Source: Pyrinomonadaceae bacterium
Lineage (GTDB): Bacteria; Acidobacteriota; Blastocatellia; Pyrinomonadales; Pyrinomonadaceae
Length of the DNA: 64,000 nt
Direction: 5' to 3'
NCBI GenBank assembly: GCA_041745765.1
Contig: JBGTIH010000062.1
Location: forward strand, 595 to 64,594
The position numbers were made by a program, and so were the translations under genes. Shown piece after piece: positions 9,826-63,534 of the stretch. Every line of letters begins with the position of its first letter. Within the stretch, counting starts at the first letter, position 1. The notes under the pieces were generated by a model. It had not been told where the DNA came from. It was given only the letters and a program-made list of their open reading frames with translations, and ran no database searches.

Positions 9826-12800
9826 TTAAACGGAGATAAAATCCAAAACTTCGCGCGCTCTTTCAATCGGATTTTTTCCGGTTTCGACAACCTGCAAAAT
9901 TCCGCTCTGCGAAAATTTCGACCCTTCGTTTTCTTCTAAAAACTCCATCAATTTTTCCGGCAGAACGCGCGCATTTTCACTGAGTTTGACGGCAAAGCCT
10001 TCTTTTGTTTTATCGATCGAAATAATTCTCATCTGTTCGGCGAGCTTTCTGAGGCGTGCGAATTCAAAGAGATTTTCGACCGAATTCGGCATTTTTCCGT
10101 AGCGGTCCTGGATTTCCGTGTAAATTCTCCGCAGAGTTTCTTCGGAATCGGACGAAGAAATGCGTTTATAAGTTCTAAGTCTTTGGGAAGTTTCGTTGAT
10201 ATAATCGTTCGGAATCGAAACGTCAACGCCGAGGTTGATCGAAACGCTCGATTCGTCTTCGATTTCTTCGCCTTTGAGTTCGGAAATGGTGCGTTCGAGC
10301 ATTTTAGTATAAAGATCAAAACCGAGCGCATCGAGTTGACCGGATTGCTGACCGCCCAAAATATTTCCCGCGCCGCGCAGTTCTAAATCGAGTGCCGCAA
10401 TGCGAAATCCCGCGCCGAGATCGGAAAATTCTCTGATTGCCGAAAGTCTTCGCCGCGCAATCGGCGTTAATTCCAGTTCGCCCGGAATCAAGAGATACGC
10501 GTAAGCCCGCCGGTTCGAACGCCCGACTCGACCGCGAAGCTGGTAAAGCTGCGAAAGCCCGTAATTATCAGCGCGATTGATAATTATCGTATTCGCCCGC
10601 GGAATATCTATGCCGTTTTCGATGATCGTCGTCGCGATCAAAACGTCGTATTTGAAATCAACGAAATCGAGCATAATTTCTTCCAGAATCTTTTCGTTCA
10701 TCTGCCCGTGCGCGAAAACGACACGCGCATTCGGCACGATTTTTTTGATATGCGCACTCATTGCTTCGATCGTTTCGACGCGGTTGTGAATAAAGAAAAC
10801 CTGTCCGTTTCGCGCCAGCTCGAGCTCGATTGCCGATTTGATCACGCCTTCCGAAAACTGCACAACCTGCGTATTGATCGCCAGACGATCGCGCGGCGGA
10901 GTTTCGATCACCGACATATCGCGCATTCCCAAAAGAGACATATTCAAAGTGCGCGGAATCGGCGTTGCGCTCAGAGTTAAAACATCAACTTTTTTCTTCA
11001 GATGCTTTAATTTTTCCTTGTGCGCGACGCCGAATCTTTGTTCTTCATCAACGACGACCAGACCGATTTTCGGGAGTTTCACGTCATTTGACAGAATTCT
11101 GTGCGTTCCGATCAAAACATCAACTTCCGCTTTTTCCGCTTTTTCGACGACTTCCTTTTGCTCTTTTTTTGAACGAAACCGCGATAAAAGCTCGATTTTG
11201 ACGGGAAACGCCGCAAACCTCTGTTTAAAGGTTTCAAAATGCTGGTAAGCGAGAATCGTCGTCGGTGTTAAAACGGCGACCTGTTTGCCGTCCATCACAG
11301 CTTTAAATGCCGCCCGCATCGCAACTTCCGTTTTTCCGTAACCGACATCGCCGATAATCAGGCGGTCCATCGGGACGGCGGTTTGCATATCTTTTTTCGT
11401 GTCTTCAATTGCGCCCGCCTGATCGGTCGTCAATTGATACGGAAACGCATCTTCAAATTCTTCCTGCCACGGCGTATCTCCGGAAAATGCAAAGCCTTGC
11501 ACGAGTTTTCGTTCGGCGTAAAGCCGCAATAATTCGTCCGCCATATCGCGCATCGCGCGTTTGGCTTTTGCCTTTGTTTTCTGCCAGCCCAAACCGCCCA
11601 AACGGTCAAGCGTCGGCTGCGCCGCTTCGCCGGAAGAATATCGCGAAACCAGATCCAGACGTTCGACCGGAACGAAAAGTTTCGAGTTTTCGGCGTAGAT
11701 CAGGAGCATAAACTCGCGGGATACGCCGCCCGTTTCCAACACCTGCAAACCCTCGAAACGCCCGATTCCGTGATCGACGTGAACGACGAAATCACCGGGT
11801 TTCAGGTCGCGGAAATCGGAAACGAAGGCACTTATTTTGGTCTTTGATCGTTGGTCTTTGATCTTTGTTTTTTGAAATTCGGCTTGCGTCGTTTCGCCGA
11901 AAATGTCCGTTTCGGTGAAGATTTTCAGGTTGAACGAGGGAATTTCAAAACCGCCCGACAGATCACCGATTTTAATTTGATCCGGCGGCAAAACAATATC
12001 GTAATCGCGCAAAATATCGGAAAACCTTTCGGCAATGCCGTGCGCTTGAAAAACGAAAAATTGTCCCTCGTTCCTCGTTCCTCGTCCCTCGTCCTTCATT
12101 TCACGAGTAAATTCTTTGACATTTCCGCGATATTTACGCGTCGGGCGCGAGCCGATCTCGAAATCCGAAGATTTTTCGGCGGTCGGGAATAAAAATAAGG
12201 GTCTTTGATCTTTGATCTTTGATCTTTGATCTTCGGAATTTGAGATTTGAGAAAGCGTTTCAGCAATTTGATCTTGAGTTTCTGAATGTTGAAATTCTTC
12301 ATCGGTTTGCGCCGCCGTTTTGCCGAGCGCGCGGAGTTCGATGCGGCTAATTGAATTTAATTTTTCGCGCAAATTCTCGGCGCTTAAAAATAATTCGTCC
12401 GGCTCTAAACCGATCTCGCCCTGTTCGTTGATTTCGGCGTAATGCGTCTCGATAGTTTCGTAAAAAGTTTCGAGCGTTTTTTCGATCATCGCCGGTTCGT
12501 CTAAAACGAAAATACAATCTTTTAGAAAATCAAAAACGCTCGAATTTCGCGGTTTTACAAGCGGAATCAGGAATTCCCAGCCGGAAAAATCTTCGCCTTC
12601 TTCGGCAAATTGGGTGCGGTCGGTCAGATTCCGCACAAATTTCTCGTCCGAGAATCTCTCACGCGCAAAAAACGCCCAATCCTTAAAATCCTGCGCGGAC
12701 GCGGAAAACGGACGCATCGGCACGATGCGGGTTTCTTTCAGCTGGCTGATTGAAAGCTGCGATTCGGCATCGAACTCTCTGATCGAATCAACCGTGTCGC

Positions 12801-13488
12801 CGAAAAACTCGATTCGCACCGGATATTCCGCGTCCGGCGACCAAACATCGATTATTCCGCCGCGCAGAGAAAATTCGCCGATATTTTTGATCGGTTCTTC
12901 GCGGACATAACCGGAAGAGGCGAGCTTTTCCAACAATTCGTCGGGTGGAAAATCCTCGTCGCGTTTCAAAACCGCGCCTAGTTTCTGCATTTCTGCGGGC
13001 GAAAGCGTTTTGGTAATCAGGGATTTTGCCGAAGTTACGACAAAATCCGTCTGACCGAAAGACAAATTCCAGAGCGTCAGTGCGCGTTTTTCCAGCGTTT
13101 CGGCGTGCGGCGAAATTCCGGCGTAAACGTCCGTTTCCATCGAAGGCAAAGTTTCGATTTTGGATTTTGGATTTTGGATTTTGGATTGATTTTCTCTTGA
13201 ACTTTGAACTTTGGACTTTGAACTTTGAACCGAATCTTGCCAGAAAATCAAATCTGATTCCCACGTTTCGATCTCTTCATTTGAGTCGGCGACGATGACG
13301 AAAGTCTTATTTGTATCGCTTTGAAGTTTTGATAATACAAAGGCTTTGGCGGCGATCGAGGTTAAACCGCTCAGCGAAATTACGCGCGTGCCGCGCTTTA
13401 TTTCGTCGCGTAAGTGTTTTAATTCATCGGTTGTTTCGGATGCAGAATTCATTTCAATAATTTTAGAGAAAATTTCAGGAAGTTGCAC
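9826..13488 (-). CDS. mfd: Transcription-repair coupling factor Mfd
   Basis: 1220 aa. It has the RNAP-interacting block (GDFVVHVDHGIGRFEGL), an SF2 translocase with Walker A (GDVGYGKTEVAMRAA) and DEEQRFG, and a TRG region. The start is either the GTG at 13488 or the ATG at 13452. Four low-complexity inserts are encoded by heptamer repeats. Confidence 0.95.
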   Translation of the reverse strand: MQLPEIFSKIIEMNSASETTDELKHLRDEIKRGTRVISLSGLTSIAAKAFVLSKLQSDTNKTFVIVADSNEEIETWESDLIFWQDSVQSSKSKVQSSRENQSKIQNPKSKIETLPSMETDVYAGISPHAETLEKRALTLWNLSFGQTDFVVTSAKSLITKTLSPAEMQKLGAVLKRDEDFPPDELLEKLASSGYVREEPIKNIGEFSLRGGIIDVWSPDAEYPVRIEFFGDTVDSIREFDAESQLSISQLKETRIVPMRPFSASAQDFKDWAFFARERFSDEKFVRNLTDRTQFAEEGEDFSGWEFLIPLVKPRNSSVFDFLKDCIFVLDEPAMIEKTLETFYETIETHYAEINEQGEIGLEPDELFLSAENLREKLNSISRIELRALGKTAAQTDEEFQHSETQDQIAETLSQISNSEDQRSKIKDQRPLFLFPTAEKSSDFEIGSRPTRKYRGNVKEFTREMKDEGRGTRNEGQFFVFQAHGIAERFSDILRDYDIVLPPDQIKIGDLSGGFEIPSFNLKIFTETDIFGETTQAEFQKTKIKDQRSKTKISAFVSDFRDLKPGDFVVHVDHGIGRFEGLQVLETGGVSREFMLLIYAENSKLFVPVERLDLVSRYSSGEAAQPTLDRLGGLGWQKTKAKAKRAMRDMADELLRLYAERKLVQGFAFSGDTPWQEEFEDAFPYQLTTDQAGAIEDTKKDMQTAVPMDRLIIGDVGYGKTEVAMRAAFKAVMDGKQVAVLTPTTILAYQHFETFKQRFAAFPVKIELLSRFRSKKEQKEVVEKAEKAEVDVLIGTHRILSNDVKLPKIGLVVVDEEQRFGVAHKEKLKHLKKKVDVLTLSATPIPRTLNMSLLGMRDMSVIETPPRDRLAINTQVVQFSEGVIKSAIELELARNGQVFFIHNRVETIEAMSAHIKKIVPNARVVFAHGQMNEKILEEIMLDFVDFKYDVLIATTIIENGIDIPRANTIIINRADNYGLSQLYQLRGRVGRSNRRAYAYLLIPGELELTPIARRRLSAIREFSDLGAGFRIAALDLELRGAGNILGGQQSGQLDALGFDLYTKMLERTISELKGEEIEDESSVSINLGVDVSIPNDYINETSQRLRTYKRISSSDSEETLRRIYTEIQDRYGKMPNSVENLFEFARLRKLAEQMRIISIDKTKEGFAVKLSENARVLPEKLMEFLEENEGSKFSQSGILQVVETGKNPIERAREVLDFISV
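11839..11870. repeat. Tandem GGTCTTTGATC(G/T)TT x2 (2x7-nt period) inside mfd
   Basis: Read directly from the sequence. It is translated as KTKIKDQRSKTKI. Confidence 0.8.
12064..12098. repeat. Heptamer array T(C/T)CCTCG x4-5 inside mfd
   Basis: tccctcg ttcctcg ttcctcg tccctcg tccttca, translated as KDEGRGTRNEGQ. Confidence 0.8.
12202..12251. repeat. Heptamer arrays TCTTTGA x4 then ATTTGAG x2 inside mfd
   Basis: Read directly from the sequence. It is translated as ...SQISNSEDQRSKIKDQRP... Confidence 0.85.
13156..13231. repeat. Two adjacent heptamer arrays (GATTTTG x4, TTGAACT x5) inside mfd
   Basis: Read directly from the sequence. It is translated as VQSSKSKVQSSRENQSKIQNPKSKI. Confidence 0.85.
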
Positions 13489-13557: not shown

Positions 13558-13814
13558 AGAAGAATTCTTCCTTTTCAAGTTCGGCAAATTGCCGAACTTA
13601 CGCGCTCTCGCTTATACTTTTTCTTTATATAATCTAAATTGCCAGTTATGAAAATTTAGGACACTTTGCCCGCGAAATACGCGAAAACACGCGAAAAAAG
13701 GAATAAAGTTAATTGTTTTTGTCTTTTTTTTAGCGCATTTCGCGTATTTCGCAGGCAATTTCTCCAAAATGTTGATGACTGAAAACTTGGGATATATAAA
13801 TCGAAGAAAAAATT

Positions 13815-15767
13815 ATGAAAATTGCATCATTTGACGAAATTATCGAACCGAACGATCAGACCGAAGCGCGGCGCGTTCATCTGGAAAAATTGCGGACGTT
13901 GGTCGGAAATGTTTATCCGAATAAATTTGAACGCTCGAAAGTTTCCGGTGAGGAAGACACGATCACGAATCTCGTAAAATTCGCGCCCGTTGCGGAAATT
14001 GTCAGGCAATTAAAGGACAACACGCCCGAAGGCGCGAAACCGGATCAGGAATTAAAGGCAAAACTCAACGAAAAATTAAATGAATTCGGCAGCGTCAGAA
14101 TTTCGGGAAGATTGGCGGTTCCGCCGCGCGTGATGGGCAAAGCCGCGTTCGTACACCTCAGCGACGGCGTTAAGCGTCTGCAAATCTATGTTCGCAAAGA
14201 CGATGCGAAAGGGATTTACAACGGGTCAGACCCGTCTGCGGTAGCGGGCGGTTTAACGTCTGCTTCGGAAAGCTCGAAAAATAATCTTCAACCATCCGCT
14301 ACCGCAGATGGTTCTGACCTGAGCGGTTGGGAACTTTTCGGCTTTCTCGATCACGGCGATTTTATCGGCGCGGAAGGTTTTTTGTTTTTGACGAATACGG
14401 GCGAATTGTCGGTTCACGTTGAAACGATTCAATTTTTATCAAAAGCACTTCTTCCGATGCCGGACAAGATGCACGGAATTGCCGATCCCGAATTGCAGCG
14501 CAGGTTTCGTTATGCCGATCTGATCGCGTCGAGTTTGCAGATCGAACACGAAGGTTTAACGACGCGCGAGGTTTTCGAACGCCGCGCCAAACTTATCAGC
14601 GGAATGCGGCAGTTTCTCGATTCGCACGGCTACATCGAAGTCGAAACGCCGATGCTCACGCCGAAAGCGACAGGCGCGGCGGCGACTCCGTTTGAAACGC
14701 ATCACAACGCGCTCGATATTCCTCTATACGCGCGAATCGCGCCCGAACTTTACTGAAAAAGATTAACGGTCGGCGGTTTTGAAAAGGTTTACGAACTCAA
14801 CCGCAATTTTCGCAATGAAGGTTTGTCGCACAAACACAATCCCGAATTCACGATGCTGGAATTCTACTGCGCTTATATGGATGTCAACGGGATGATGGAT
14901 TTCGCCGAAGCGATGATTAAAGAATCGGTACAGAAAGCGACGGGCGGAAGTTTGGTTGTAAATTACGACGGTAGAGAGATTGATTTTTCAAAGTTTAAAA
15001 GATTGTCAATGATTGATGCCATAATCTCAAAAATGCCTAATTTATTAAAATGGGCAAGCCTTATTAAGGACAGAGACGAGTCAAGTCCTCTAAACTCGAA
15101 AGTGAAAGAACAATTTAATCCTAAAATGATTTTTGAATTATGGACATTGTTTGAAGAATATGCTCATGAAGACAAAGAAATTGTTTTAGAAGACGAACAT
15201 AAAGATTGTAGTGAAGGACACAAAAAATTCCAAGCATTTGAAGAAAAAGTTCTCGAAACTAAAAAGAAATATGAAGGAATTGAAATAACTTCAGCGGAAT
15301 CTGATAAAGACGTATTGGCTTTATTTGAAGATTTTGTTGAAGGAAACTTAATCCAACCAACCTTCATCATTGATTACCCGAAATCAATTTCGCCCTTGTC
15401 GAAAGCGTCGCCGGAGAATCCGCAGATTGCCGAGCGGTTCGAGCTTTTTATCAACGGAATGGAATGCGCCAACGGATTTTCGGAACTCAACGATCCGCAG
15501 GAACAGTATGCGAGATTCATTGACCAGATGAAAGAGCGCGAATCGGGCGACGCGGAAGCGATGGTTTTGGACGAAGATTATATTCGCGCGCTCGCTTACG
15601 GAATGCCGCCGGCGGCGGGAATCGGCATCGGAATCGACCGTTTGGTGATGTTGCTGACAAACAAACATTCGATTCGTGATGTAATATTATTTCCGCATAT
15701 GCGTCCGGTTTCCAGAGAAGAAGAAAGCGAAAATGATTCTGAAGAGGAAAATCAGGACGAGAAATGA
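13815..15767 (+). CDS. lysS: Lysine--tRNA ligase, class II. The reading frame is interrupted by one in-frame TGA (14754-14756), so the ORF track shows two halves.
   Basis: Both ORFs (13815-14756 and 14823-15767) are in the same frame. The sequence across the stop reads ...[45 protein letters not shown], which is the conserved class II LysRS motif region. Downstream motifs are also present ([31 protein letters not shown]). Confidence 0.9.
14224..14320. repeat. Palindromic dispersed element, copy A (inside lysS, translated in frame)
   Basis: GGTCAGACCCGTCTGCGGTAGCGGGCGGTT-36 nt-AACCATCCGCTACCGCAGATGGTTCTGACC. The arms recur at 51683-51788. Confidence 0.85.
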
Positions 15768-26630: not shown

Positions 26631-26716
26631 AAGTTTCAAATTTCAAGTTACGAGTTCCAAGTTAAAAAATTACTTGGAACTCGTAACTTGAAACTTGGAA
26701 CTTTGAACTTTGAACT
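26631..26716. repeat. Heptamer-word hairpin (AAGTTNC / ACTTGNA arms)
   Basis: caagttacgagttccaagt-taaaaaatt-acttggaactcgtaacttg, flanked by further 7-nt words. Confidence 0.75.
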
Positions 26717-26722
26717 GTTAAA

Positions 26723-28273
26723 TTATTGAACCGTAAATTGAACCACGCTCATCTGCGTATTCCGGCGCAAGCGGTCATAGCTTACAATATGCAAAACGAC
26801 CGCATCGCCTTTTTTCAGATTATTGACATAATCGTTAAAACTCTTCAGATCCGTAACCGGCTGGCGGTTAATTCTTTGAATCAAATCACCTTCGTTCAAC
26901 GCGTCGCCGCCGGTCGAACTTTTGACATCGGCAATAAAACTCGCCGGATTGATGCTTTTGACGATCAAACCTTTTTCGCCTTCGAGCCTATAAATCTTTG
27001 CGACATCGAGCGTTAGTTCGGTCAAAGTCAGACCGAACGGCTGCTGCGCTTTAATATTTTTATCAATCGGCAGTTTGCGTGGTTCTTCTGTGTCAATCAC
27101 GCGGTTATTTGAAGGACGCTCGGCAAGTGTGATCGAAGTTGTTTTGCGTTCGAGTCTTGTTCCGACTTCGCGCAGATACGTAACATTTACAGTTTGATCG
27201 GGCGCGGTTGAGGCAACTTTTTGAATCAAATCCTGAGCATTTTCCACCTTTTGCCCGTTAAATTCCAGAATCACGTCATTTGCCAGCAAACCGGCATTTG
27301 CCGCCGCGCTCTTTTTTTCCCGCACTTCGGTAATGATCGCGCCTTTGGCTTCCGGCAGATCATAAACTTTGGCGAATTCGTTTTTTACCGAATCGAGCAA
27401 AACGCCGAGATAGCCGCGCCGGACTTTGCCGTTTTGGAGAATCTGCCGATAAACATTTTCCGCTTCATTTGACGGCAGAGCAAAACCGATACCATTGTAA
27501 TCGCCCGTCGAAGTGGCGATCTGCGAATTAACGCCGATGACTTCGCCCTGCATATTAACAAGCGGTCCGCCCGAATTTCCGCGATTGATTGCTGCGTCGG
27601 TTTGAATAAATTTTTGAAACGCATTGCCGGAAGGAGTTTCTCTCTGCGTCTGCGAAATAATGCCGGCTGTTACGGTTTTTGCCAGACCGAACGGCGAACC
27701 GATTGCCAGAACCCAATCGCCGACCTGCGCTCTGTCCGAATTTCCCAATCTGATCGAAGGCAGATCGCGCCCCGTTTCGATTTTCAAAACCGCCAGATCG
27801 GTTTCCTCGTCCGTGCCGATAACTCTCGCCACATATTCTTCGCCCGAAGAAAGCTTGACGGTGATCCGCACCGCTTCTTCGATAACGTGATAATTCGTTA
27901 AAATATAGCCGCTTTTATCAACGATAAATCCGCTTCCGACGGCACTCGCCGGACGGCGCGGAAGTTGTCTTTTAAAGAATTCCAGAATATCGTCCGAATC
28001 GCCCGCCGATTCATCGCCTTTTAATTTTACTTCGGGGATTTTTCCTTTGGTATCAATGCTGACTACTGCCGATTCGACGCGTCTTGAAACCTCGGCAAAT
28101 GATGCGGAAAGTTTTTCAGGAGTAATTGAGGCTTCTGCTCCGACATTTTCGATTTGAGCAAACACCTGTCCGGAATTGCCGCTTAAAGCAGCGACCGCAA
28201 AAATCAAACCGGCAACCCAGAAACGGATTTTTCCGGCGATGATTCCATTTGAATTATTTTTATAATTTAACAT
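26723..28273 (-). CDS. HtrA/DegP-family serine protease with two PDZ domains
   Basis: Catalytic ...TNYHVI..., ...DLAVLK..., ...GNSGGPLV..., 516 aa with a signal/TM N-terminus. Confidence 0.9.
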   Translation of the reverse strand: MLNYKNNSNGIIAGKIRFWVAGLIFAVAALSGNSGQVFAQIENVGAEASITPEKLSASFAEVSRRVESAVVSIDTKGKIPEVKLKGDESAGDSDDILEFFKRQLPRRPASAVGSGFIVDKSGYILTNYHVIEEAVRITVKLSSGEEYVARVIGTDEETDLAVLKIETGRDLPSIRLGNSDRAQVGDWVLAIGSPFGLAKTVTAGIISQTQRETPSGNAFQKFIQTDAAINRGNSGGPLVNMQGEVIGVNSQIATSTGDYNGIGFALPSNEAENVYRQILQNGKVRRGYLGVLLDSVKNEFAKVYDLPEAKGAIITEVREKKSAAANAGLLANDVILEFNGQKVENAQDLIQKVASTAPDQTVNVTYLREVGTRLERKTTSITLAERPSNNRVIDTEEPRKLPIDKNIKAQQPFGLTLTELTLDVAKIYRLEGEKGLIVKSINPASFIADVKSSTGGDALNEGDLIQRINRQPVTDLKSFNDYVNNLKKGDAVVLHIVSYDRLRRNTQMSVVQFTVQ

Positions 28274-35234: not shown

Positions 35235-36005
35235 TTATAAATAAAATAAACTCAGCCGCGGAATTTCGCGTTCATCCCGAAGTTTTTTAAGAAGCATCAG
35301 CTTAAATGTCCGCTCATAAACTTCTCTTTCCATTTTTGTCTGATAATCGGCGATTTTCTTTGACGTTTCAGCTTTTAATTTTTCGGTAACGAATGATTTT
35401 AATAAAATTTCGTCAATTGAAGCGTCCAATTTTTCGAGATTTTCCTCGAGTTTTTCAGCCGAAAGTTTTTTGTTTTTCAGCTGATTCAAACTTTCCGAAA
35501 CTTTTTCCAAAATTTTCTTCAAATCGCCGACGGCATTTTCGGCGGCGAAATCCAATCCGGCGGAAATTGTTTGAAGATGTTCGGCAATCGTTTCATCGGA
35601 AAACAACTCGTTTTTCGGATGATTTTCTTGGCTTTTATCCGGCGTTTTAATCTCCGTTTTGCCGTTTTTCCCGATTTGCGATTCGAGCCATTCGGCGTAT
35701 TGCGCTTCGATTTCTTCTTTGCAATACGACAGAGATTTGATCGTCCGGCGTTTGTTCGGATTTTTATCGTAAGCATCGAAAACATTTTCGATGCCGCGCA
35801 AAATAATATGAAGCGGCACGCCGCGCTCTTGCCACGTTTCGATCAAAGCCCAATCCAGAGGATTTAAAAGCAAATTGCGCCCGCGCCGGCGGATAAAAGC
35901 TTCTTCGATTTCGGAAAAATAGTTAAAGTAATTCAATGGTGAATGGTGAACGGTGAATGGTGAATTATAAATTGGTTTTTTTATTAACCATTCATCATTC
36001 CCCAT
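35235..36005 (-). CDS. Hypothetical protein with a C-terminal coiled coil
   Basis: 256-aa ORF. The first ~24 codons are encoded by the hairpin repeat at 35934-36014, so the true start may be the TTG at 35936. Confidence 0.55.
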   Translation of the reverse strand: MGNDEWLIKKPIYNSPFTVHHSPLNYFNYFSEIEEAFIRRRGRNLLLNPLDWALIETWQERGVPLHIILRGIENVFDAYDKNPNKRRTIKSLSYCKEEIEAQYAEWLESQIGKNGKTEIKTPDKSQENHPKNELFSDETIAEHLQTISAGLDFAAENAVGDLKKILEKVSESLNQLKNKKLSAEKLEENLEKLDASIDEILLKSFVTEKLKAETSKKIADYQTKMEREVYERTFKLMLLKKLRDEREIPRLSLFYL

Positions 36006-36014
36006 TCACCATTA
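35934..36014. repeat. Heptamer-word hairpin (AATGGTG arms)
   Basis: caatggtgaatggtgaacggtgaatggtgaatt ... aaccattcatcattccccattcaccattaatc. Confidence 0.75.
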
Positions 36015-36015
36015 A

Positions 36016-36273: not shown

Positions 36274-36322
36274 TTTCTATTAGCGATGCTACGCGACTCG
36301 CGCGAAAGTTTCAAGTTCGCAT

Positions 36323-36455
36323 AAAAGTTCAAAGTTTAGAGTTCAAAGTTCAGAGTTATCGTTTAGAATAGCATTGCTTATAATTTTGCATTTCAAAAAA
36401 CATTTGCTTTAAAGTATAACCAAACCTTGAACATTAAACTTTGAACTTTGAACTT
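36323..36455. repeat. Long-loop heptamer-word inverted repeat (AAGTTCA arms) in a divergent spacer
   Basis: aaaagttcaaagtttagagttcaaagttcagagtt ...65 nt... aaccttgaacattaaactttgaactttgaactt. Confidence 0.7.
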
Positions 36456-36463
36456 AAACGAAA

Positions 36464-50193: not shown

Positions 50194-51675
50194 TTATTTC
50201 TCCGATAAAATTTCCAAACCGCCGTTTTGCATTGAAAAAACGCGGTGACACCAGCGTTTTAATAAATCGTGATCGTGGCTGACGAGGACGATTGCCGTGC
50301 CTTTTCGCGCGGTTTCGGCGAAAAGTTTCATAATGAGTTCGCCGCTCAAAACGTCGAGCGATGAGGTCGGTTCGTCCGCCGCGATGATTTTCGCCTCAGC
50401 CGTCAGAGCGCGGGCGATAGCGATGCGCTGGCATTGTCCGATTGAAAGTTCGGTCGGTCGCGCGTCTAAATTTACATTTTCCAGACCGACTTCGCCGAGT
50501 TTCTCTCTGGCAATTTCGCGCCGTTCAATTTTTAAAAATTTCTTCTTCCGGTGTTTTGCCGTCAAAGGTTCGGTGATGATTCGCCAGATCGCCCAACGCC
50601 GGTCAAGGCTTGCCAAAGAATCTTGAAAAACGGGCATAACAAAACCGTTTCGCGCGTTTCGGCTTAAAATTTTGCGCGTTTCGCCGTTTGAAACGAGTTC
50701 GCCGCCGAGATAAATTTCGCCTCTTTTCGGGGTTTCAATCGTTGAAACAAGCCGCAGAAGAGTAGATTTTCCGCAGCCCGACGCGCCGTAGATTCCGACG
50801 ATCTCGCCTTGTTTGATCTCTAAATTCAAACCTTCGATCAGTTCGTTTTGCCCGTAAAAATGACCGAGATTTCTTGTTTCCAAAACAGTTTTCGCGTTTT
50901 CCAAAATTTGCGCCGTTTCCCGGATTTTCAGATGCGAAACGGACAATAATTTTTTCGTATATGCGTGCTGCGGATTATGAAAAATATCACACGCCGCGCC
51001 GCTTTCGACGATTTTGCCGTCAAACATTACGGCAATCCGGTCGGCGTATTTTTCGACTAATTTCAGATCATGGCTGATGAGCAGAACGGCAGTTTTCAGC
51101 TTTCGCAAAGATTCCAAAACCGCTTGATTCAGCTCGGCATCGAGCGCGCTGGTCGGTTCGTCGGCGATAATCAATTTCGGCGAATGCGCCGCCGCCGCCG
51201 CGATTCCGGCGCGTTGCAGCATTCCGCCGCTCCAGGCGTTCGGAAATTGTCTGACTTTTGATTTTGCGTTTTCGATTTTGAGTTTTTCGAGCGAATTTTC
51301 AACCGCATTTTTCGGCGGAACAATTGAATGAACGCGCCACGCTTCACCGACAAAATCGCCGACCGTCGCTAGCGGATTACAAGCCGAAAACGGGTCTTGC
51401 GCAACAAATCCGATGACCAAACCGCGCAATTTTCGCAAAGTTTTTGCGCTCGAATTTATGATTTCTTTCCCGTTCGCAAAGATCGTGCCGTCAATTTTAG
51501 TTTTCGGCGGAAGAACGCCGAGCGCGGCGCGAGCCAGAGTTGATTTTCCGCAGCCCGATTCCCCGACGAGCGCGAAACATTCGCCCGCCGGTATCGAAAA
51601 CGAAACCTCGTCGAGTGCCCGTTTGCCGTTCGGATATGTTACCGAAACTTGTTGAAAATCAAGAACTTTGGACAT
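50194..51675 (-). CDS. Fused double ABC ATPase (NikD/NikE- or DppD/DppF-like)
   Basis: Two Walker A motifs (GESGCGKST, GASGCGKST) and two signature/Walker B sets (SGGMLQR...IIADEPTSALD, SIGQCQR...IAADEPTSSLD). The ATG at 51675 is preferred, because the longer start at 51693 lies inside the repeat element. Confidence 0.85.
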   Translation of the reverse strand: MSKVLDFQQVSVTYPNGKRALDEVSFSIPAGECFALVGESGCGKSTLARAALGVLPPKTKIDGTIFANGKEIINSSAKTLRKLRGLVIGFVAQDPFSACNPLATVGDFVGEAWRVHSIVPPKNAVENSLEKLKIENAKSKVRQFPNAWSGGMLQRAGIAAAAAHSPKLIIADEPTSALDAELNQAVLESLRKLKTAVLLISHDLKLVEKYADRIAVMFDGKIVESGAACDIFHNPQHAYTKKLLSVSHLKIRETAQILENAKTVLETRNLGHFYGQNELIEGLNLEIKQGEIVGIYGASGCGKSTLLRLVSTIETPKRGEIYLGGELVSNGETRKILSRNARNGFVMPVFQDSLASLDRRWAIWRIITEPLTAKHRKKKFLKIERREIAREKLGEVGLENVNLDARPTELSIGQCQRIAIARALTAEAKIIAADEPTSSLDVLSGELIMKLFAETARKGTAIVLVSHDHDLLKRWCHRVFSMQNGGLEILSEK

Positions 51676-51682
51676 TTCTAAA

Positions 51683-51788
51683 GTCAGAACCATCTGCGGT
51701 AGCGGATGGTTAAAAATAACTTTTCAAACCTTGGCAAATAACTCAAATTTTCGAGTTGAACCGCCCGCTACCGCAGACGGTTCTGACC
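51683..51788. repeat. Palindromic dispersed element, copy B (between the permease and ATPase genes)
   Basis: GTCAGAACCATCTGCGGTAGCGGATGGTT-46 nt-AACCGCCCGCTACCGCAGACGGTTCTGACC. The arms are the reverse complement of copy A with one mismatch. Confidence 0.85.
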
Positions 51789-51839: not shown

Positions 51840-52709
51840 CTATTCCGTCACATCCCGCAGAGCATTTCCGGTCAAATTTGCCGACATTACCGAAAGAAAA
51901 ATCGCCAGCGCGGGCGCGAACAGCAGCCACGGCGCGAATGTAAAAAACGAACGCGATTCGGCGAGCATCGCGCCCCATTCGGCGTTCGGCGGCTGAACTC
52001 CCAAACCGAGAAAAGAAAGCGACGCGAGCAAAATAATTATTCCGCCGAGATCGAGCGTCGCCACAATTAACATTTGAACGAAAACCTGCGGAAAAATATG
52101 TCCGATGACGATTTTTATCCAGCTGATTCCGCACAAACGCGCGACGATGACATCTTTTCTCTGTATTGAAATCCGCACAAACGAGCGCGCCAGACGCGTG
52201 TAAAAAGCCAGCGACGATACAAAGATCGCAAGCAACAGATTTTCAAAACCGACACCGAGAACGCCGACGATTCCCAGAGCTAAAACAATCGGCGGAAGCG
52301 CGAGAAAAACGTCAATCACGCGCATCGCGGCTGCGTCAATAATGCCGCCGATCATTCCGAAAAATGTTCCGAGCGCAATACTGACCAGCAGAATTAAACT
52401 CAAAACCAGAATTGCCGAACCGAGCGAACGAAGCCCGCCGCTCGCGATCCGCGTCAACAAATCGCGCCCGAACTGGTCTGTTCCGAACGGATGCGTCAGA
52501 CTTGGCGAAAGCAATTTTGCACCCGCAATTTGTTCGTCGGGCGAAAACGGCGAAACGAACGGATAAAGAATGACGAAAATTATCAATATCAATCCGACAA
52601 AAATTGCGAAACGCGCCGTTCGTTTTGTCCAGAGTTTTGCCAAAACGTGTTCGGTCGAAAATACCGGAATTTCTGTTCCGCGTTTCCAGAATGTCTCCAG
52701 CACGTTCAT
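51840..52709 (-). CDS. ABC permease, NikC/DppC-like
   Basis: 289 aa, 6 TM helices, binding-protein-dependent transport signature region. Confidence 0.85.
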   Translation of the reverse strand: MNVLETFWKRGTEIPVFSTEHVLAKLWTKRTARFAIFVGLILIIFVILYPFVSPFSPDEQIAGAKLLSPSLTHPFGTDQFGRDLLTRIASGGLRSLGSAILVLSLILLVSIALGTFFGMIGGIIDAAAMRVIDVFLALPPIVLALGIVGVLGVGFENLLLAIFVSSLAFYTRLARSFVRISIQRKDVIVARLCGISWIKIVIGHIFPQVFVQMLIVATLDLGGIIILLASLSFLGLGVQPPNAEWGAMLAESRSFFTFAPWLLFAPALAIFLSVMSANLTGNALRDVTE

Positions 52710-63452: not shown

Positions 63453-63534
63453 TGGTGAAACTTTTTAATGGTGAATGGTGAATGGTGAATGATAAATGAT
63501 AAGAAATTTCTTACAATTTTCCATTTTCCATTGT
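63451..63534. repeat. Heptamer arrays (AATGGTG x4, AATGATA x2 ... TTTTCCA x2)
   Basis: Read directly from the sequence. The arms are only partially complementary. They use the same AATGGTG word as 35934-36014. Confidence 0.65.

Follow-up and report, generated by a model that had tools for sequence, protein, structure and literature searches.

A probable REPIN family of the Pyrinomonadaceae, with one copy carried in frame in the lysyl-tRNA synthetase gene

A palindrome of about 100 bp lies within the reading frame of lysS, the gene of a class II lysyl-tRNA synthetase (LysRS), in a bacterium of the Pyrinomonadaceae. The stretch of DNA analysed, called the window below, consists of 64,000 nucleotides of contig JBGTIH010000062.1 (assembly GCA_041745765.1). 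How does a palindrome come to be translated inside an essential gene, and to what kind of element does it belong? A preliminary description of the window had taken it for a dispersed element, not native LysRS sequence. The insert is very probably a copy of a REPIN family of the Pyrinomonadaceae, a REPIN being a doublet of repetitive extragenic palindromic (REP) units. The family appears to have a partner resembling the Y1 transposases known as REP-associated tyrosine transposases (RAYTs), and this copy appears to be tolerated in a loop of LysRS. The features on which the argument depends are as follows.

13815-15767, plus strand: lysS, class II lysyl-tRNA synthetase, the host gene; one reading frame, broken by a single TGA
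14225-14318, plus strand: REPIN copy A (REP doublet), 94 bp, inside lysS, encoding S138-D168 of LysRS
14225-14253, plus strand: arm 1 of copy A, a REP unit of 29 nt, GTCAGACCCGTCTGCGGTAGCGGGCGGTT, with a GTCAG foot and the hairpin ACCCGTCTGC-GGTA-GCGGGCGGTT
14254-14289, plus strand: spacer of copy A, 36 nt, translated in frame
14290-14318, minus strand: arm 2 of copy A, an inverted REP unit of 29 nt, AACCATCCGCTACCGCAGATGGTTCTGAC, with a stem of the CCAT..ATGG type
51683-51787, minus strand: REPIN copy B, inverted with respect to copy A, with arms at 51683-51711 and 51759-51787 and a 47-nt spacer

The sequence between 14224 and 14320 reads as had been described, with two arms of about 30 nt separated by 36 nt. 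Arm 1 differs from the 29-nt family consensus at two positions and arm 2 at four, and the palindrome gains one further pair from an extra G/C at each end of 14225-14318. An 18-nt core, CTGCGGTAGCGGRYGGTT, occurs four times in the window, where 0.08 occurrences are expected, a count reached in none of 100 shuffles. The RNA of copy A is predicted to fold at -58.5 kcal/mol, compared with -28 kcal/mol for shuffled sequences (z = -9.5). No match to Rfam was found in the whole window at gathering thresholds. The second copy reported earlier is also present: one arm of copy B is identical to that of copy A over 29 nt and the other differs by one base. The window thus holds two copies in 64 kb.

The open reading frames (ORFs) 13815-14756 and 14823-15767 together make up a single lysS frame, which remains open across copy A, as the preliminary description had it, giving a predicted peptide S138-D168. 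The element begins with a G that completes codon G137 as its third base. When LysRS is aligned with Escherichia coli LysS (1BBU) by phmmer, query residues 79-137 correspond to 51-110 and residues 175-313 to 112-242. Since these blocks nearly abut, residues 138-174 occupy the place of about one E. coli residue. The alignment confirms the earlier assignment of the site to a loop of the N-terminal OB-fold (oligonucleotide/oligosaccharide-binding) anticodon-binding domain; the estimate of about five E. coli residues at that place was too high. When the N-terminal 313 residues are modelled with AlphaFold2, residues 136-167 lie between a strand (132-134) and a helix (171-176), have a predicted local distance difference test score (pLDDT) below 50 and lack secondary structure. 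The segment is thus modelled, at low confidence, as a disordered surface loop, in line with the loop placement suggested before.

Is the palindrome a member of a repeat family? The GTDB collection, with one genome per species, was scanned for two 12-nt cores lying 35-65 nt apart, and at least 120 further full copies were found outside the window. The carriers are nearly all metagenome-assembled genomes (MAGs) of Pyrinomonadaceae, Pyrinomonadales, Blastocatellia or Chloracidobacterium, with several matches per MAG, and about 90% of the copies among the 120 matches listed are intergenic. The element is therefore dispersed and not native to LysRS, as had been proposed. One full element was found at a locus (L068; JACCVN010000031.1, 1397-1467) on an 8.6-kb contig labelled as a Parachlamydiaceae MAG, which is probably mis-binned acidobacterial DNA.

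The alignment of 230 arms yields the unit consensus GTCAGAACC-RY-CTGCGGTAGCGG-RY-GGTT. The outer boundary of these arms is sharp at GTCAG, and the foot GTCAG(A) is more than 90% conserved. Each arm can fold on its own: the GTCAG foot is followed by a 10-bp stem, AACCGCCTGC / GCGGGCGGTT, closed by a GGTA loop. The stem is paired in 89.5% of the alignment cells of 77 distinct arms. Compensatory changes occur at three stem pairs (G:C to A:U, C:G to U:A and C:G to G:C), and 45 cells are changed on both sides of the stem, a number matched by none of 500 shuffles and far above that in all slid registers. At the two variable pairs, Watson-Crick pairing is found in 91% of cases within arms against 75% between arms. 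That the four innermost pairs never vary is a consequence of the search pattern, which fixed them. Exactly one plus/minus doublet is present in 100 of 121 sources (the 120 listed loci and the window), with a spacer of 24-52 nt and a total length of 82-110 nt, and the hairpins of full elements fold at -52 to -62 kcal/mol.

A length of about 100 bp, terminal inverted repeats of about 29 nt and the absence of coding capacity would also be expected of a conventional MITE (a miniature transposable element with inverted repeats), that is, one derived by deletion from an insertion sequence of the DDE type, moved via its terminal inverted repeats and having no link to a Y1 enzyme. However, both terminal repeats are covarying hairpins in their own right, and there is no target-site duplication, the flanks of the copies matching each other no better than those of shuffled partners. 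Furthermore, no DDE transposase gene was noticed beside the copies, though none was searched for systematically, while a Y1 gene flanked by the arms was found in seven of eight loci (see below). The element is therefore classed as a REPIN, being a doublet of covarying hairpins that lacks a target-site duplication, and a MITE origin is very improbable.

A transposase that might move such doublets is encoded by a 169-residue ORF situated between stray arms, which scores above the gathering threshold of Pfam Y1_Tnp. By tblastn, the gene is present in five of the 120 loci that had been chosen solely for carrying the repeat, and four of these five genes have arms or full doublets on both sides at a distance of 5-60 nt. 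Another three loci, retrieved by way of the protein only (L201, L208 and L209), all have arms on both sides of the gene, so that seven of the eight Y1 loci are flanked on both sides, the arrangement known as a REPtron. At L209 the gene lies between two single inverted units. Residues H95 and H97 (the HUH motif) and Y156 are invariant and about 60 residues apart, as in IS608 TnpA. The AlphaFold2 model of the transposase has a pLDDT of 82.6, and its top 30 Foldseek matches are all IS200/IS605 TnpA proteins or the E. coli TnpA-REP structure 4ER8. There are 5613 homologues at E <= 0.001, labelled RayT in JGI annotation. With the NCBIfam IS200 model the protein scores 28.2 bits, the cut-off being 55, and a search of PDB sequences with the single sequence or with a profile of 28 sequences found nothing; the structural tie to the IS200/IS605 and RAYT enzymes comes from the comparison of folds. 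Each transposase look-up gave one place. In two different metagenomic genomes (L208 and L209, 3001-3513) the gene has the shared neighbourhood infB-rbfA-nrnA-RAYT-cobO, which hints at vertical inheritance at a fixed chromosomal locus, and at L201 the RAYT-like gene is found in a different neighbourhood.

How old is the insert in lysS, and is it real? The nearest LysRS relatives belong to the Pyrinomonadaceae (Acidobacteriota, Blastocatellia) and are at most 80% identical. In a set of 121 LysRS sequences (that of the window and its 120 best matches), 32 carry both arm peptides at exactly this loop, always in the same frame; the insert is thus specific to the lineage and not peculiar to this genome. 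The remaining loops are short (NDTGKPIEEEGKA) or hold peptides typical of heptamer tandem repeats, such as NPQSAIRNPQ and SPLTTQHSP, which in some orthologues occupy the same loop as the REPIN. More distant relatives have a short loop of the form N-D-x-x-G-x-E-V-x-GWELF, and of the 80 lysS loci obtained in a metagenome scan with the LysRS N-terminus, nearly all belong to such insert-free relatives. The short loop of the relatives suggests that this is the ancestral state. The DNA arms are recognizable in all six of the lysS orthologues fetched, with 1-6 mismatches in 29 nt, and in each the element begins with a G that serves as third base of the codon before it. The spacer of copy A is nearly identical to that of the closest orthologue (L203). 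Spacer motifs found in lysS are no proof of common descent, since they also occur in copies within other genes.

Breaks and misjoins do arise in assemblies at repeats, and many of the contigs carrying the RAYT gene are very short, so an artefact (a chimera or repeat-induced misjoin) has to be considered, as has an ancient native LysRS insertion that happens to resemble the repeat. Yet the insert is present at the same codon position and in frame in 31 other LysRS genes from independent short- and long-read projects, including multi-megabase long-read contigs. This agreement between independent assemblies excludes the chimera or misassembly that the preliminary description had raised as a possible objection. 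As to a native insertion, the arms are found as DNA in at least 120 places other than lysS, the short-loop relatives show the ancestral state, and a homologous peptide was found only within this family. The probability of either explanation is close to nil.

Copies in other protein genes show what kind of site can hold the element. The count of intragenic and intergenic copies in relatives places 9-10 of the 120 listed copies well inside long ORFs, about 8% being in frame in real proteins. The hosts confirmed by Pfam are Mfd (L006), MurB, an AcrB-type pump, an alpha-2-macroglobulin, an FtsX/MacB permease, an Eco57I-type methylase, a GH15-esterase fusion and a deacetylase-GT2 fusion, and the majority of the inserts lie between Pfam domains. 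Nearly all are read as SEP(S/P)AVA(D/G)G...QPPATAGGSD, and two leave the element in the frame NRPLPQAVLT. The frame SEPSAVADG...QPPATAGGSD is one of three frames of the palindrome, is free of stop codons on both strands and encodes small hydrophilic residues. It is open in only 20 of 115 copies genome-wide, indicating that the coding copies are a filtered subset. A peptide-profile search of a set of 5.8 billion proteins returned only spurious ORFs of 35-77 residues on intergenic copies, the larger host proteins being absent from this output. These correspond to 'hypothetical proteins' of 35-77 residues predicted by gene callers on intergenic copies (P0121-P0172); the open frame of the palindrome seeds such ORFs.

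By analogy with E. coli TnpA-REP and IS608, the RAYT-like enzyme would recognize the REP hairpin in single-stranded DNA, cut and rejoin it, and so spread the doublets. Purifying selection would have cleared copies that broke a frame or entered a folded region, and the copy in LysRS would be tolerated as a passenger peptide, presumably without a function of its own.

The gene in the window carries one defect, overlooked in the preliminary description.

14754-14756, plus strand: in-frame TGA, codon 314 of lysS, at the Leu of PELY-L-KRL, one base from TTA

All of the approximately 70 relatives examined have a Leu codon at this position; the closest (L203) has TTA, within 27 otherwise identical bases. 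No other long ORF of the window is interrupted in this way. Reassignment of TGA was considered and rejected, TGA ending 8 of the 34 long ORFs in the window. This TGA must be an error in one base or else a true nonsense allele, and has no bearing on the reality of the insert.

Several points weigh against the insert being a tolerated REPIN copy with a RAYT-like partner. The foot is GTCAG instead of the canonical REP motif GT[AG]G; GTAG is present in the unit but overlaps the loop and the 3' side of the stem. The transposase scores 24.3 bits with the NCBIfam RAYT equivalog NF047646, for which the cut-off is 80. The AlphaFold2 model of LysRS is of low overall confidence (mean pLDDT 55), and the premature TGA makes it uncertain that this exact sequence yields a full-length LysRS. 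On a weakly resolved neighbour-joining tree of LysRS, the presence and absence of the insert require about 21 steps, compared with a mean of 28 and a minimum of 22 in 1000 permutations. This count does not establish a single old insertion followed by vertical descent, and the site may be a permissive hot spot that gained the insert repeatedly, or the insert may have been lost many times. Lastly, the arms appear to change in pairs: GGTA has become GGCA in both arms of one orthologue (L202) and GTCA in both arms of another (L207). These paired changes hint at a constraint or a correction process, which a pure passenger would not predict.

The paired changes bear on the suggestion that the palindrome in lysS has been selected or co-opted, as a regulatory or stabilizing hairpin of mRNA or single-stranded DNA or as a lineage-specific appendage of LysRS. 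The lysS arms have stayed near the consensus (1-6 mismatches in 29) although the orthologous proteins are only 65-80% identical, and the predicted hairpin is very stable. In the protein, S or L in arm 1 is always paired with D, N or H in arm 2 (six of six orthologues). The REPINs beside the RAYT gene in the L202 genome keep GGTA, unlike the lysS copy, which has thus not simply been overwritten by a master sequence. Among the fetched loci, a sample selected for the canonical core, GTCA and GGCA loop cores at both arms occur only in lysS copies. On the other hand, three-quarters of the related LysRS, close relatives included, either lack the insert or have unrelated repeat-derived peptides, the spacer is conserved only among close relatives, and the same element is found in linkers of many unrelated proteins. 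A single event may underlie all six S/L-D/N/H cases, which would then not be independent. Quasi-palindromes can, moreover, undergo complementary changes without selection, through template switching or correction of mismatches in the hairpin. Co-option of the palindrome in lysS is accordingly judged improbable. The same estimate is given to the wider proposition that REPINs in essential genes such as lysS have their arm complementarity actively maintained, the hairpin or the loop being co-opted. Selection for the long hairpin would be the more novel reading of the paired arm changes, compared with template-switch correction; if true, a co-opted REPIN could tune lysS expression or tie the RAYT-REPIN system to host physiology. 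A tolerated REPIN copy remains the preferred reading.

Copy B occupies a gap between two genes of an ABC-transporter operon on the minus strand, and its end lies 8 nt upstream of the ATPase start codon. Its neighbours, whose NCBIfam scores are under the equivalog cut-offs, are as follows.

51840-52709, minus strand: nikC/oppC-like permease gene, upstream of copy B
50194-51675, minus strand: fused nikD/nikE-like ABC ATPase gene, downstream of copy B

The mechanical ORF call for the ATPase gene, 50194-51693, extends into an arm of copy B, and its likely ATG is 8 nt away from the copy. The ribosome-binding region of this gene would overlap the copy B hairpin.

Other repeats are present in the surroundings of lysS. 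The mfd ORF (9826-13488, minus strand) contains five in-frame tandem arrays of a 7-nt unit, with about five copies each, and similar arrays occur in intergenic regions.

11836-11875, 12063-12094, 12202-12252, 13152-13187 and 13197-13230: heptamer arrays inside mfd
26631-26725, 35932-36015, 36316-36456 and 63464-63502: similar intergenic heptamer arrays
13624-13686 and 13738-13800: 63-nt imperfect inverted repeat, 78% complementary, between mfd and lysS, just upstream of the lysS start

The 63-nt inverted repeat has no second copy in the window or in the 209 loci fetched and, being unique, was rejected as a member of the REPIN family. In a relative with a 4.2-Mb sequence (L202, 1-2103), the mfd gene beside lysS is called as four pieces of 792, 119, 82 and 373 residues, which could be due to repeat-associated frame breaks or to long-read errors; the gene order there, mfd-lysS-RraB-acyltransferase, is that of the window. 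The catalytic domain of LysRS has a second long and highly variable insertion at residues ~415-530 (~15060-15400 in the window), and an alignment of 50 LysRS sequences swells to 1061 columns.

With these observations an abundant soil lineage, the Pyrinomonadaceae, joins the few clades in which palindromic mobile DNA is known to reside inside protein-coding genes, and the repeat is paired with a probable transposase. The lysS loop offers a natural system in which one site of an essential enzyme holds the element in some species, is empty in others and contains other repeats in others again. The gain and loss of REPINs, the frames and protein sites that are tolerated, and the co-evolution of arms within genes can all be tested. 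In practice, the repeats break assemblies, seed spurious small ORFs and inflate the apparent variation of protein length in Pyrinomonadaceae.

A full-text literature search found no description of this repeat family or of REPINs in Blastocatellia or Pyrinomonadaceae. The closest known systems are the REPIN-RAYT systems of Pseudomonas and Enterobacteria (Bertels & Rainey 2011, PMC3116915; Bertels 2017, PMC5581495; for REPtrons, the summary in PMC6006769). As in those systems, the element is an inverted doublet of short hairpins with a spacer, about 100 bp long, dispersed and, among the copies listed, mostly extragenic; the same units stand on both sides of a small HUH/Tyr Y1 transposase gene, and target-site duplications are lacking. 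The two arm types differ slightly from each other, as do the Y and Z REPs of E. coli. The differences lie in the host phylum, Acidobacteriota, in the GTCAG foot, in a transposase too diverged to match the NCBIfam RAYT model or a PDB sequence, and in the share of listed copies, about 8%, that are in frame inside genes.

Acidobacteria were previously known only for RAYT-like genes flanked by terminal inverted repeats (TIRs), the TIRYTs (PMC3733652). These Y1 transposases and their TIRtrons have been described in Koribacter, Terriglobus, Acidobacterium and Granulicella (PMC3733652; subclass 2.1, PMC6006769). The present gene resembles them in being a RAYT-like Y1 gene of the same phylum with flanking inverted repeats able to form small families. 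However, the TIRYT repeats have a GGGGWSAS motif and are not typical hairpins, whereas the flanks found here are hairpin REPs, and most TIRYTs have C-terminal helix-turn-helix domains, whereas the present protein is a bare 169-residue core.

The preliminary description had named the Rickettsia palindromic elements (RPEs) as the precedent; they are the classic in-frame palindromic case (Ogata et al. 2000, as summarized in PMC10969869 and PMC3733652). The parallel is apt as regards the way of working: RPEs are palindromic selfish DNA carried in frame in housekeeping genes, with the peptide placed where the fold is compatible, and about 8% of the copies listed here are in frame in other proteins. 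The likeness would be confined to this, no relationship in sequence being expected. RPE-1 is described there as about 150 bp long and as belonging to an obligate intracellular alphaproteobacterium, and no dedicated transposase is named for RPEs in those papers, whereas a cognate Y1 transposase is evident here. The REP/REPIN-RAYT systems are therefore the closer precedent.

The preliminary description had also supposed that such an element was new in this lineage. The lineage is indeed new, but the phenomenon has precedents, intragenic REPs being on record in several other phyla. GTAG/CGTC REPs occur within genes of Opitutus terrae, Thauera, Xanthomonas and others (Di Nocera et al. 2013, PMC3733652), where repair genes are prominent among the hosts, and in-frame REPs have been found inside tnpA-REP genes (Quentin et al. 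2018, PMC6006769). Those REP singles and dimers likewise keep the frame, encoding 20-30 residues, and a DNA repair gene, that of Mfd, is again among the hosts in the present family. The repeat family and the lineage differ from theirs, and here the same site of an aminoacyl-tRNA synthetase is filled across many species. The insert in lysS is thus a known phenomenon extended to a new lineage, in which the foot is non-canonical, the transposase has diverged and an aminoacyl-tRNA synthetase offers an in-frame site that is filled unusually often.

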